A program made the translations under genes and the position numbers. Below the pieces are notes generated by a model that had not been told where the DNA came from, did no database searches, and saw only the letters and a list, made by a program, of their open reading frames with translations. This document shows positions 2,550 through 6,759 of a DNA stretch of 64,000 nt, one piece after another. How positions within the stretch are numbered: the first letter of the stretch is position 1; every line of letters starts with the position of its first letter. The stretch comes from Escherichia phage vB_ECOLIGBLB0003, in the sequence record PV654517. The stretch is one strand, 5' to 3'.

Positions 2550-2602
2550 CCTTATGTTATGTCAGTAAGACTACTGTAACACAACATAAGGAACTTGTAA
2601 AC
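2550..2602 (-). promoter_or_regulatory. structured leader element: 13-bp stem that pairs the Shine-Dalgarno, next to a GTTTAC -35-like hexamer
   Basis: Arms 2550-2562 and 2579-2591 are complementary (one G.U on the RNA); inner CAGTA/TACTG pair in the loop; GTAAAC on + strand at 2597-2602; nearly identical copy at 17676-17728. Confidence 0.5.
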
Positions 2603-4659
2603 TACATTTTGAACTTTTTAGACATTCCGTTGATGTTAACCAAAGAAGCTAAGATTTGAGAAACTTCGTTTTCCTCTTCTTTTGATTCTTCTACAAGGAA
2701 TTGATTAAATCCAGCCATTGGACGAACTTCACCAGTTTCCATTAGATGGTCTCCATCATATACTGATTCTTCTAATTGTTCAGAAGGAGGAACGATTGTA
2801 CCTTCGATTAGATACTTGTTATAAGCAGTTTCTTTCATAAAGTACGTACTTACTTTATTAATCTTCAGTAAAATTCCACGCGGTAGAATAACTTCAGCTT
2901 CTGATGGAAATCCTGATAAATGACCTGGAACGATAACTTTGATTCGCTCAGCTCCTTTAATTACCATACCCACGCTAGTTTCAGCATCTTCATTAGCATA
3001 TGTAGAATGACTACCCATATGCATCAAATCTTCTGCATCAACGGAACCTTCTCCTTCACCAGAAAATACTGCGCCGGAATCATCTAGAGCCATATAGTTT
3101 TTACCATGCTCACCGAAGATATTTGGTTTAAGCGATGTGGATACGAAGTTCTTGAAATAGAACATTTTATTTTCAATGTTATGACGCAAAGTTTTAAAGG
3201 TAACTTCTTGTCCACGGTAAAGTGTAGTTCCTGGAGGAAGAACTGATCCTTTGGCAAACGCAGAATCTAACGTCTCGATGTGCTTAATAGCTCGTTCCAT
3301 GTATTCTTCACGGGTAGAATCTGGTTTACCCAAAAGGAACGAGTTCATTTCAACATATGAATCTGCACAATAATCTTCAATTACATCAGATTCAGCCTGA
3401 GTCAGTCCTTTTGGAGTTACTTCGGTGCTTGCGTATTCATATGCCTGGGCAGCAGATTCATTAATCAATTTATAAATGCCATTCATGACAAATTGAATAA
3501 TAGCTGTCTTTTCATCTGGTGTGGTTTTAGAACCTTTAACTAAATCATTAATAATTTTCTTAATAACATCAAAGCTATTAGAAATATTAATATCAGCAAG
3601 ATCGCTTAAAATTTTATCAGTTTTATAATCAAAGAATTCTTTATTCTTTAAATATTCTTGAGAACCTTGATATGTTATATCGCTCTGCAACTTGATAGAT
3701 GGATCACGTAAACGTGCATGGGCTAATGCAATATGATTTCGGAAGCTTTCTAGTTCATAATCGTTAGATTTAAAACGAGAAGCACTTCTCATACCACCGA
3801 TAGCTCCTTTGCTAAAGTTTGAACCAATCTGAATAACGCCAGAGTTCATCGGACCTTCTGCTTTATATACTGGAACTTTAGATTCAAACTCTTGATATTT
3901 CTTGGCAGCAAAGCTATCACCCTGAAGTGAAGCATCAACAGTAGAATATTGAGCTTGTGCTGCTAATCGACGACTGATTTTAGTTTTCTGAATAACAGCT
4001 TGGTCCGTGCGCTTATCATTTTCTAAAGCAATAGAAGCAGCAACAGCGACAGCTTTAGGAACAGCATTTCCTGTTTTAACGTCTACATAAACATCACCGA
4101 CCTTTGATTCAACTTTTGTGAATAACTCAGTTGAAATAGGAGGTACACCTGGAATGTCTTCTAAATTGGCATTTTTACGGTAAACCATAATATATGCATA
4201 TTTCTTATCATAGTCCCAGATTTCCTTTAAAAGAACATATCGACCTGCTCCTTTAGTACGTACTAAACGGTCAGCAATAACTTGCATTTGACGAGCTGCG
4301 CCATTTGTTTTACTTTTTAGTACGCGGAATAGGCATGCGTCGATTTTATACTGTTTCATTGTTTGAAGAGCAGTATCAAAAACGGCATTAATGACACCAA
4401 TTGGATTTCCACCCAAGTTTTTAAGTTTAACTAATGATAGTTTCTCGTTGACACCTATCATTACGATATGCATCATTTTATCGCCTGGCTTAACGTTTTT
4501 ATTCGTATCACCACCAGAGGTGTATGTACAAAATCTAAATCCCGGAAGCACGCTTTCTTCGCCGGCTTGAATAGCAAAAATTTGTGGTATTTTATGCTTA
4601 GGATTTAAGTTAACAACCGGCGCCGAAGCGCCGTCAAATAATTCTGTAATAAGTTCCAT
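2602..4659 (-). CDS. alt: Alt-like mono-ADP-ribosyltransferase (685 aa)
   Basis: Closest in length to T4 Alt (682 aa). C-terminal R-S-EXE motifs visible in translation: LYRGQE, FVSTSL, SEAEVILPRG. Positioned between gene 54 and ligase as alt is in T4. Confidence 0.7.
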   Translation of the reverse strand: MELITELFDGASAPVVNLNPKHKIPQIFAIQAGEESVLPGFRFCTYTSGGDTNKNVKPGDKMMHIVMIGVNEKLSLVKLKNLGGNPIGVINAVFDTALQTMKQYKIDACLFRVLKSKTNGAARQMQVIADRLVRTKGAGRYVLLKEIWDYDKKYAYIMVYRKNANLEDIPGVPPISTELFTKVESKVGDVYVDVKTGNAVPKAVAVAASIALENDKRTDQAVIQKTKISRRLAAQAQYSTVDASLQGDSFAAKKYQEFESKVPVYKAEGPMNSGVIQIGSNFSKGAIGGMRSASRFKSNDYELESFRNHIALAHARLRDPSIKLQSDITYQGSQEYLKNKEFFDYKTDKILSDLADINISNSFDVIKKIINDLVKGSKTTPDEKTAIIQFVMNGIYKLINESAAQAYEYASTEVTPKGLTQAESDVIEDYCADSYVEMNSFLLGKPDSTREEYMERAIKHIETLDSAFAKGSVLPPGTTLYRGQEVTFKTLRHNIENKMFYFKNFVSTSLKPNIFGEHGKNYMALDDSGAVFSGEGEGSVDAEDLMHMGSHSTYANEDAETSVGMVIKGAERIKVIVPGHLSGFPSEAEVILPRGILLKINKVSTYFMKETAYNKYLIEGTIVPPSEQLEESVYDGDHLMETGEVRPMAGFNQFLVEESKEEENEVSQILASLVNINGMSKKFKM

Positions 4660-4662
4660 GAT

Positions 4663-6759
4663 TTATCCTTGAACGAACTTGTAAGGCATGTTTGCAATAT
4701 CTATACAAGACGCAATAATTCCAAGAGATGATTCTACTTTCTGTTTAACATTTGATGAAACAAATGATGCAAAATCAACTCTGTCTTCTATTTCAATATC
4801 ACCTGTCATTGTAACTACTTCGCCGGTTTCCATTAGACGGTCACCGTCATAAATTACCGATTCGGTGAGTTCTTCTGTGGTCATAACTTCAGCTTGAATG
4901 AGTTTTGTATTATTAGATGTTGTTCCGTCATTATTAGAAGCATCAGTTATTTTATTAACTTTGACCATCAATCCGCGTGGTAGAATAACTTCAGCTTCTG
5001 TTGCTATTCCGAGACTTCCTGGATATACAACATTAACTTTATGTGCGCCGTCAATTGCCCATCCTATTTGAACTTTAACATATTCAGGATTTTCTTTATA
5101 CGCTCTTATTTCGCTTGGATTAATAGTTATTCCTTCTTCATTTTTATCAACTGTTAATTCATTTCGAGTTTCTGGTTCTAAAAGACCAATACCAGCATGT
5201 GTAATTCCAAAACGTCCAAAAATGATAGGAGTTAAAGAAGTAGATACAAAATTTCTGAAATAGAACACTTTATTTTTAACTAGCGCTTCGTATATAGGAG
5301 CAGTCATACTTTGAGCACGATAAACTGTGATGCCTTCCGGTATGCGGTCACCATTTTCAAAAGCTGAATCTAAATTATTTATAGCAGATTCAATTTCTTT
5401 TTCACTCATTACATCATATCGTTCTGGATTGTAGCGTCCTAAAAGAAGATTATTGATGTCAGTATATCCTGAACCACAATACTCTCTAATGCCGCGCTTT
5501 TGCGATGGAGTATATTTAGAACCATCACGGGCAATAGTAATATCAATCATTGGACCAGCACCAATTCCAGAAAAACTATAAATCATTCGTTTGAGGAATT
5601 TAGTTTTTGCTGCATTCCAGGCATTTTTAGTTATTTCTCTCCAGACTTCATCTGGTTGCCCTTTACGAGTTTTATTATGTTTATCAAGCCAATTATCTTT
5701 ATATTCTTCAAAGAATTTATTAACAGCTGCTGCGTATTTCTCTAAACATTTTATTGAAGTAGTTGGTTCATTTTTAATCGCATTAAGAATTACATCTTTA
5801 ATTTTTTCAGAAACTTCATTAACCTCACTTTTTGAAAAGAATTTATAGTCATAATGAAGTTCATCTGCAGTTCCTTCAGCAATAATTTTTGCTGCCTTAG
5901 TTTTAGAAGCTAATGAATTAATTCCAAGCTTCATTTCTTCTGCTTCGGGAATTAAAGGAGCGGTAGCAGGTTTATTTAATTCTGCTGCTGAAGCCTCAAA
6001 TTTTTGAAACATCGGCGTTTCAAATCTAGAAGATTCCAATGATTGACTTTGCGCAATTGCTCTACGGGAAATTTTAACTTTAACGATTACAGCTTGGTCA
6101 GAACGTTTATCATTTTCTTGCGCAATAGATGCTGCAATTGCCTCATTTTTAGTTACTTGAGCTCCAGTATCTTTATTGATATAAACATCACCGACCTTCG
6201 ATTCAACTTTAGTAAAGAGCTCGGTACTAATTTCCGGAACTCCTGGAATGTCTTCTAGAGATACATTTTTGCGATGTATAAGAATATATGCATACTTTTT
6301 ATCATAATCCCAGAGTTCCTTAAGAAGGACGTATCTGCCACCTGAACGACTGCGGATAAGTCTATCAGCAATAACTTGAATTTGTCGAGCTTGACCAGCG
6401 GTTTTAGACTTAAGAATACGGAGCATACAGGCATCAATTTTATACTGACGCATTGTTTGCATTGCAACAGTAAAAACTGAATTGATATAATTAATTGGGC
6501 TTGGACCAAGACCTTTTAATTTAGCAATTGAACCTTTAGCAGTTAATGTAAAAGGAACAATATGCATCATTTTATCGCCCATCTTTAAATCGCGATTAGT
6601 ATCACCTCCAGATGTATAGGTACATAAACGAAAGCCTGGTTGTTCAATTGCATCATCAACATGAACTGAAAAAATTTGTGGTATTTTCTTCTTTGGATTT
6701 AAGTTTGTAATTGGAAGAGTAGTATCTTCGTCAAATAATTCTGTAATGAGTTCCATCAT
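4663..6759 (-). CDS. Alt-like mono-ADP-ribosyltransferase paralog (698 aa)
   Basis: N-terminal ~250 aa highly similar to the neighbouring copy (MELITELFD, CTYTSGGDTN, RYVLLKE.WDYDKKYAYI); C-terminal R-S-EXE motifs VYRAQS, FVSTSL, TEAEVILPRG; central region divergent. Confidence 0.7.
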   Translation of the reverse strand: MMELITELFDEDTTLPITNLNPKKKIPQIFSVHVDDAIEQPGFRLCTYTSGGDTNRDLKMGDKMMHIVPFTLTAKGSIAKLKGLGPSPINYINSVFTVAMQTMRQYKIDACMLRILKSKTAGQARQIQVIADRLIRSRSGGRYVLLKELWDYDKKYAYILIHRKNVSLEDIPGVPEISTELFTKVESKVGDVYINKDTGAQVTKNEAIAASIAQENDKRSDQAVIVKVKISRRAIAQSQSLESSRFETPMFQKFEASAAELNKPATAPLIPEAEEMKLGINSLASKTKAAKIIAEGTADELHYDYKFFSKSEVNEVSEKIKDVILNAIKNEPTTSIKCLEKYAAAVNKFFEEYKDNWLDKHNKTRKGQPDEVWREITKNAWNAAKTKFLKRMIYSFSGIGAGPMIDITIARDGSKYTPSQKRGIREYCGSGYTDINNLLLGRYNPERYDVMSEKEIESAINNLDSAFENGDRIPEGITVYRAQSMTAPIYEALVKNKVFYFRNFVSTSLTPIIFGRFGITHAGIGLLEPETRNELTVDKNEEGITINPSEIRAYKENPEYVKVQIGWAIDGAHKVNVVYPGSLGIATEAEVILPRGLMVKVNKITDASNNDGTTSNNTKLIQAEVMTTEELTESVIYDGDRLMETGEVVTMTGDIEIEDRVDFASFVSSNVKQKVESSLGIIASCIDIANMPYKFVQG

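Follow-up and report, generated by a model that had tools for sequence, protein, structure and literature searches.

The alt locus of the T-even phages raises the question of whether T4, with its single alt gene, represents everything that these phages inject to ADP-ribosylate host proteins. Nearly all knowledge of injected phage ADP-ribosyltransferases (ARTs) stems from T4, and T4 has lost a gene, alt.-2, that is present at full length next to alt in Escherichia phage vB_ECOLIGBLB0003 (sequence record PV654517), of which a stretch of 64,000 nucleotides, referred to as the window, was analysed in this study. The locus in the window is the two-gene form of the Tequatrovirus alt locus. We find that alt.-2 is very probably a functional ART gene. 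We further propose, with a probability of about 0.6, that its product is a second late-made, capsid-packaged and injected arginine ADP-ribosyltransferase with a target set different from that of Alt, its packaging and its targets being predicted from sequence.

Two Alt-type ADP-ribosyltransferases in tandem

The upstream copy, alt (4663-6756, minus strand, 697 residues), is of the T2/RB32 allele type and is followed by its full-length paralog, alt.-2 (2602-4659, minus strand, 685 residues). An initial annotation, made without database searches, had described the locus as a tandem pair of Alt-like genes with conserved ends and a divergent middle. BLASTP bears this out, aligning the two proteins over their full length with 41% identity (E 2e-163): identity is 56-75% in the N-terminal 240 residues, 17-26% in columns ~240-440, and 27-49% in the ART domain. 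The two open reading frames (ORFs) of the span given at that time, 2602-6759, were recovered, the longest ORF for alt being 4663-6759 (minus strand, 698 residues), but translation of alt probably starts at the second ATG, at 6756, because the Shine-Dalgarno sequence GAGAGGA (6761-6767, minus strand) lies 5 nt from this ATG and only 2 nt from that at 6759, and because the T4 and RB32 annotations begin, like the resulting 697-residue protein, with MELITELFD. Synonymous sites are saturated along the whole paralog pair (dS, the synonymous divergence, ~0.7-2) and the non-synonymous divergence (dN) of the N-terminal domain is only 0.2-0.36; therefore, the duplication is an old one, and it is selection that has conserved the ends. 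Recent gene conversion was considered as an alternative cause and is ruled out by the saturation of synonymous sites throughout the pair.

Both proteins score well over the gathering cut-off (23.4 bits) of the Pfam family PF03496 ADPrib_exo_Tox, alt with 128.7 bits and alt.-2 with 72 bits, in agreement with the earlier assignment of both ORFs to the R-S-ExE ARTs, and every motif named at that time was found: YRGQ (R482) in alt.-2 and YRAQ (R480) in alt, FVSTSL, and EAEVILPRG, whose catalytic glutamates, E587 and E589, are intact in both copies. Invariance was judged in alignments of 19-21 homologs, namely A2 (21 sequences from both paralog lineages) for alt.-2 and A3 for alt. In A2, the catalytic Arg482 (3214-3216), S507 and S509 of the S507-T508-S509 motif (3133-3141), and both glutamates of E587-A-E589 (2893-2901; all minus strand) are invariant, and so are R480, S505-S507 and E587/E589 of alt (E587-A-E589 at 4990-4998, minus strand) in A3. 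An E-x-E motif, rather than Q-x-E, is the signature of arginine-type ARTs, and the alt.-2 product is thus predicted from its motifs to be an arginine-type ADP-ribosyltransferase.

The loop in front of the glutamates, which corresponds to the ADP-ribosylating toxin turn-turn (ARTT) loop, differs between the copies. It reads GFPSEAE in alt.-2 (ARTT-like loop SGFPS, with a Phe at -3), GIATEAE in alt (loop LGIAT, without an aromatic residue) and APSNEME in T4 Alt. The GYAGEYE loop of CdtA/iota resembles that of alt.-2 in having an aromatic residue. In C3/iota-type ARTs the ARTT loop contributes to substrate recognition. The predicted structures of the domain show the ART fold, a helical N-subdomain followed by a split beta-sandwich. 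Sequence searches of the PDB gave only weak CdtA/iota matches for alt and nothing for alt.-2, and Foldseek against viral models returned other Alt homologs only.

The alt.-2 gene is a working gene under strong purifying selection. Compared with six Tequatrovirus orthologs, it shows 49-87 synonymous and 4-21 non-synonymous differences, giving dN/dS values of 0.02-0.06, and the value is 0.12 against the 74%-identical ortholog of a more distant pair-bearing phage (L012). For alt, dN/dS is 0.09-0.17, its central part being the most relaxed.

Domain plan and divergent centres

AlphaFold2 (AF2) models of both proteins, with predicted local distance difference test (pLDDT) scores of 75.7 for alt.-2 and 73.6 for alt, suggest a common plan: first an alpha/beta N-terminal domain, then, after a short flexible linker, a region made only of helices, next the ART domain with its helical subdomain and beta core, and finally a disordered tail. 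The predicted boundaries are 1-225 (N-terminal domain), 250-415 (helical centre), 416-628 (ART) and 629-685 (disordered C-terminal tail) in alt.-2, and 1-225 (alpha/beta N-terminal domain), ~248-410 (helical centre), ~411-632 (ART) and 633-697 (C-terminal propeptide) in alt.

The N-terminal domain (N-domain), 56-76% identical to that of T4 Alt, corresponds to the Pfam family PF26846 Tevenvirinae_ADPRT, with precomputed matches on a 99%-identical protein (P0001) and on both genes of the L012 pair. An exhaustive search among 1.84 billion representatives placed this domain in only 69 clusters, always at the N-terminus. Ten members picked from these for odd length or distance were tested, eight of which matched the ART profile, including one truncated 461-residue protein just below the cut-off; the other two had no Pfam match at all, and no non-ART Pfam effector stood behind the N-domain in any of the ten. 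The domain (~235 residues) is Alt-specific, being restricted to Alt proteins of T4-like phages. The notion that it serves as a general delivery module, as in polymorphic toxins, was rejected, as no other effector was found in the ten tested members.

The central ~180 residues form two sequence families. The alt-type centre is found in window alt, T4 alt, the upstream gene of L012 and P0016, and the alt.-2-type centre in window alt.-2, the downstream gene of L012, JS10 Alt (P0012) and P0013. Homology between the two families went undetected both in BLAST of the excised segments (E > 0.2) and in small-profile hhalign (probability 0.8%). In the AF2 models both centres are all-helical with a similar helix order, which would fit extreme divergence as well as replacement. 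P0012 and P0013 are JS10-type Alt proteins of other genera and have the alt.-2-type centre; both central lineages are therefore older than the genus Tequatrovirus. Some phages, among them Aeromonas phages and LHE83, have three to four Alt-like places.

The remnant of alt.-2 in T4

The initial annotation noted that T4 has only one characterised alt gene, which is correct, and that a second conserved copy might exist. This second copy is real but already known: its full-length form is annotated in hundreds of genomes, and in T4 the gene has decayed. Downstream of its alt gene (682 residues), T4 has two small ORFs, alt.-1 and alt.-2, which its annotation explains as an old duplicate of the beginning of alt. 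Their proteins are nearly identical to the N-terminus of window alt.-2, not to that of alt. At the DNA level, blastn aligned the T4 record (L002) to the window in two blocks, T4 4520-4105 with window 4728-4312 (96.2% identity) and T4 4113-3700 with window 2621-2206 (95.7%), which overlap by 9 nt in T4 and leave window positions 2622-4311 (minus strand) as the part of alt.-2 deleted in T4. The 9-bp repeat CTAAAAAGT is present at both breakpoints in the window, and the T4 remnant joins the flanks through it. T4 keeps only ~125 codons, which a frameshift interrupts, and the final few codons, read out of frame.

T4 alt.-1/alt.-2 is thus the remnant of a full-length paralog that underwent a 1,690-bp microhomology deletion and a frameshift. 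The GenBank note of T4, according to which part of alt was duplicated, has the direction reversed; the two-copy state is ancestral. The same position, between alt and alt.-3, together with the ~96% DNA identity makes window alt.-2 the ortholog of T4 alt.-1/alt.-2, and its T4 counterpart is an uncharacterised remnant rather than a second gene of established function. A metagenomic phage contig (L006) has this deleted allele too, beside an alt of the window type.

Alleles and chimeras at the locus

Variation at this locus affects alt as well. Window alt is 73% identical overall to T4 Alt (L002 4455-6503), with ~100% identity over the first 250 residues and again from ~620 onwards, and 25-65% in between, the variable middle (~250-620) including the catalytic domain; compared with alt of T2, RB3 and RB32, it is 95-98% identical. 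In tblastn, ~315 records carried the window (T2/RB32) allele and ~212 fell into the 60-80% band, in which the rows sampled, at 70-73%, were T4-type. This pattern looks like a cassette-type polymorphism of the middle part of alt. A third, more divergent variant of the alt middle occurs in L012. Among the genomes sampled from ~540 Tequatroviruses, we read four combinations of alt allele and alt.-2 state: T2-type alt with full alt.-2 (the window, T2, RB32 and phiD1), T4-type alt with full alt.-2 (Sf21), T4-type alt with deleted alt.-2 (T4 and fPS-2), and T2-type alt with deleted alt.-2 (L006).

At three loci a single chimeric gene takes the place of the pair: KAW1E185 (L011 3501-5558) joins alt 1-~610 to the alt.-2 tail, L013 (5001-7061) joins alt 1-~210 to the remainder of alt.-2, and L014 (5001-7055) does so after alt 1-~170. 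With their three crossover points, these chimeras indicate repeated unequal crossing-over within the tandem pair. In view of these natural chimeras, N-terminal domain and C-terminal tail seem to be functionally interchangeable between alt and alt.-2.

Distribution and earlier annotation

Megablast of region 2200-7000 returned 541 phage records, 390 of which span 80% or more of it with 95-99% identity; the matches include T2, RB32, RB33 and many Tequatroviruses of Escherichia, Shigella and Yersinia. With the alt.-2 protein, tblastn found ~396 records at 95% identity or more (T2, RB32, phiD1 and Sf21 among them), nearly all others being below 60%. A scan of IMG/VR yielded five loci only.

Thus, alt.-2 is already known as an annotated gene that is common in T2/RB32-type Tequatroviruses. 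Its orthologs are usually named alt.-2 or "Alt-like RNA polymerase ADP-ribosyltransferase". The RB32 record has the pair as alt and alt.-2, the latter noted as an apparent insertion similar to alt, and RefSeq gives both RB32 genes the name "Alt-like RNA polymerase ADP-ribosyltransferase"; in the Sf21 record, alt.-2 is noted as distinct from T4 Alt, with an N-terminus resembling T4 Alt.-1. Nolan et al. (2006) listed T4 alt.-1/alt.-2 and the full-length alt duplicates of other T4-like phages as paralogous duplications (PMC1524935). As to the function of the full-length alt.-2 product, our literature search found annotation-level mentions only and no characterisation. About three quarters of sequenced Tequatroviruses, T2 included, retain alt.-2 under strong selection.

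Expression signals

T4 alt is a late gene (PMC9697503). A T4-type late promoter box, TATAAATA, was recognised by pattern match and context at 6780-6787 (minus strand), ~20 nt before the start of alt, and an identical box is present at the equivalent place before T4 alt. Further upstream, between alt.1 and this promoter, the sequence AAAGGCC-TTCG-GGCCTTT (6793-6810, minus strand) could form a hairpin that looks like a terminator insulating alt from upstream transcription; the KAW1E185 record has a terminator annotated at the equivalent place. The gap between the alt stop and the alt.-2 start is 3 nt. The ATG of alt.-2 (4657-4659) is preceded by its own Shine-Dalgarno sequence, AAGGA (4666-4670, minus strand), which adjoins the alt stop codon, TAA (4663-4665). 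No terminator-like site was seen on the minus strand between alt and alt.-2, nor further on before the hairpin at 2225-2246. As the genes are only 3 nt apart and have no terminator-like site between them, co-transcription of alt and alt.-2 would be the simplest reading, and TATAAATA at 6780-6787 is likely the promoter for both. Another copy of the box, inside alt (5376-5383, minus strand), is absent from the T4-type alt allele.

Packaging and processing motifs

T4 Alt is present in ~40 copies per head, and the protease gp21 cuts it at ITE-6 and LTE-619, as determined by mass spectrometry, removing 63 C-terminal residues (PMC5694885, PMC9026906). Both window proteins begin MELITE|LFD. In alt.-2, the N-terminal gp21 motif, I4-T5-E6 (4642-4650, minus strand), is identical to ITE-6 of T4 Alt (PMC5694885), E6 is invariant in A2, and the cut is predicted after E6. 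At the other end, L629-E630-E631 (2767-2775, minus strand) aligns with LTE-619 of T4 and LTE-632 of window alt, and E631 is invariant; the sites read LTE|S (632) in alt and LEE|S (631) in alt.-2, the latter followed by the invariant YDGDxLMETGE. The predicted cut after E631 would take 54 residues off alt.-2, and the predicted mature masses are 70.1 kDa for alt and 69.2 kDa for alt.-2. The AF2 confidence of alt.-2 collapses at residue 629, exactly at the C-terminal gp21 motif. That the gp21 motifs are kept at both ends argues, at the level of motifs, for packaging and processing like those of Alt. The phage phiD1 has both genes (g200/g201); in its published virion proteome the page with g190-g202 is illegible, and the list also contains the non-structural DNA ligase.

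Proposed function of alt.-2 and its alternatives

We propose the following sequence of events: alt and alt.-2 would be transcribed late from TATAAATA ahead of alt, with alt.-2 translated via its own ribosome-binding site; both proteins would enter the prohead core, where gp21 would trim both after E6, and after LTE-632 in alt and LEE-631 in alt.-2; both mature proteins would be injected with the DNA; and both would use nicotinamide adenine dinucleotide (NAD+) to mono-ADP-ribosylate host arginines before phage genes are expressed. The parts presumed to serve packaging and catalysis are common to the paralogs. The targets of alt.-2 probably differ from those of Alt because the helical centres of the two proteins and the loops near their active sites differ, which makes the different target range suggested in the initial annotation plausible. 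Several points weigh against this proposal. No direct evidence was found for the alt.-2 product in virions, and no late box of its own lies immediately upstream of alt.-2, the sole other TATAAATA in question being the one inside alt, 717 nt upstream of alt.-2, with a motif frequency in the window that is at chance. The AF2 models were built on shallow alignments (19-21 sequences), a weakness that also counts here. Both enzymes could hit Arg265 (R265) of the RNA polymerase (RNAP) alpha subunit, as T4 Alt and ModA do (PMC2988021). Finally, phages with the deleted allele, T4 among them, are fully viable; alt.-2 is therefore dispensable on laboratory hosts.

The same facts bear on three other explanations, each less likely than a second injected enzyme with its own targets, and progressively so in the order in which they are taken here. 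The alt.-2 product might be packaged and injected, acting on the same targets as Alt, chiefly RNAP alpha Arg265, as a redundant back-up or dosage copy that raises dose or robustness. The architecture and the catalytic and processing motifs common to both copies would fit with this, as would the overlapping ARTs that T4 already has in Alt and ModA, both acting on alpha R265 (PMC2988021), and the dispensability of alt.-2, of which T4 and L006 carry the deleted allele. However, a copy kept only for dosage would hardly retain an unrelated centre and a different ARTT loop under a dN/dS of 0.02-0.06, and the two lineages are distinct across genera, the JS10-type Alt having the alt.-2-type centre; we consider mere redundancy unlikely. 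It is more doubtful still that the alt.-2 product stays out of the head and acts late inside the producing cell, e.g. on proteins of host or phage during assembly. The lack of virion evidence and of a promoter box belonging to alt.-2 would agree with such a role, but a MELITE propeptide identical to that of Alt, and a conserved C-terminal L-x-E with the YDGDxLMETGE tail, would not, nor would the chimeras, which swap N-domain and C-tail and so suggest that these parts do the same head-targeting and processing job as in Alt (PMC5694885, PMC9026906).

Least credible of all, and very improbable in our opinion, is that alt.-2 is a decaying duplicate, or a catalytically dead decoy that ties up a host inhibitor or fills a packaging site. 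T4 does show that alt.-2 can be lost, and the Pfam score of alt.-2 is below that of alt (72 vs 129 bits); yet the ORF is intact in ~396 records, all of its catalytic residues are invariant, and its dN/dS is lower than that of alt. The suggestion in the initial annotation that the second protein might serve as a decoy against host defences likewise found no support, as invariant catalytic residues and a dN/dS of 0.02-0.06 fit an active enzyme.

The preferred reading, a second injected ART with targets of its own, may be extended further, although only tentatively, and we would not expect this extension to hold in full: alt.-2 could be a second "first-strike" enzyme directed at targets not hit by Alt, e.g. 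a host defence or toxin-antitoxin protein, and the mix-and-match alleles of the locus (two alt middles; alt.-2 present, deleted or fused) could reflect a host-range arms race. T4 Alt itself acts on MazF, a toxin-antitoxin protein. If this were true, T4 would under-represent the injected arsenal of its genus. Even if only the packaging of alt.-2 and its separate targets hold, an unassayed enzyme would take part in the early takeover of the host by most T-even phages, and possibly in counter-defence. The alt.-2 gene represents a modest and easily testable gap in what is known, not a new kind of system.

Neighbouring genes

The gene order in the first 10 kb of the window is that of a Tequatrovirus: gp48 (163-1257, plus strand), gp54 (1257-2222, plus strand), alt.-3, alt.-2, alt, alt.1 and the gp30 ligase. 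The alt.-3 gene (2251-2541, minus strand, 96 residues) encodes a DUF5498 protein (Pfam E 1e-64) that equals T4 alt.-3, and it has an early-type promoter-like site of its own, TTTACA-17-TACAGT with TG (2601-2573), directly past the alt.-2 stop. Mutants of T4 Alt.-3 with a C-terminal extension evade the CmdTAC defence, as they block the degradation of CmdA (PMC11618068). The convergent genes 54 and alt.-3 are separated by a GC-rich hairpin with a perfect 9-bp stem, ATGGGGACC-TTTC-GGTCCCCAT (2225-2246), with a T-run on the plus strand only; this bidirectional hairpin is probably a terminator shared by both genes. On the other side of the pair, alt.1 (6809-6997, minus strand, 62 residues) has a match (E 1e-28) to PF24647, "Phage blade protein", a recent Pfam family. 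The gene shares 4 nt with the end of the DNA ligase gene, gp30 (6994-8457, minus strand), and the hairpin at 6793-6810 comes after it.

Comparison with known systems

The closest relatives of window alt.-2 are the full-length alt.-2 genes of RB32 and T2, with 99% identity to that of RB32, and T4 alt.-1/alt.-2, which agrees almost perfectly with window alt.-2 at the N-terminus of the protein. Window alt is the positional ortholog of T4 Alt (NAD+--arginine ADP-ribosyltransferase), having the same late promoter and the same ITE-6/LTE and R/STS/ExE motifs, but in the middle (~250-620), ART domain included, the two are only 25-65% identical. With alt.-2, T4 Alt has the whole domain plan in common, at 42% identity, but the centre of alt.-2 is unrelated in sequence and its ARTT loop is different.

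Outside the phages, the arginine-specific R-S-E toxins of the C3/VIP2/iota group (Vis, Certhrax, CPILE-a, CdtA and iota Ia) are secreted bacterial toxins with other delivery domains. The Alt proteins, in contrast, have a phage-specific N-domain, a helical centre, gp21 propeptides, and an insert between STS and ExE that is ~40 residues longer. T4 ModA and ModB resemble the Alt pair in that they are phage arginine ARTs acting on host proteins of transcription and translation, and are tandem paralogs with diverged specificity (PMC2988021). Unlike the Alt pair, they comprise only ~200 residues, are made after infection and are not head proteins, and they possess neither the Alt N-domain nor the propeptides.

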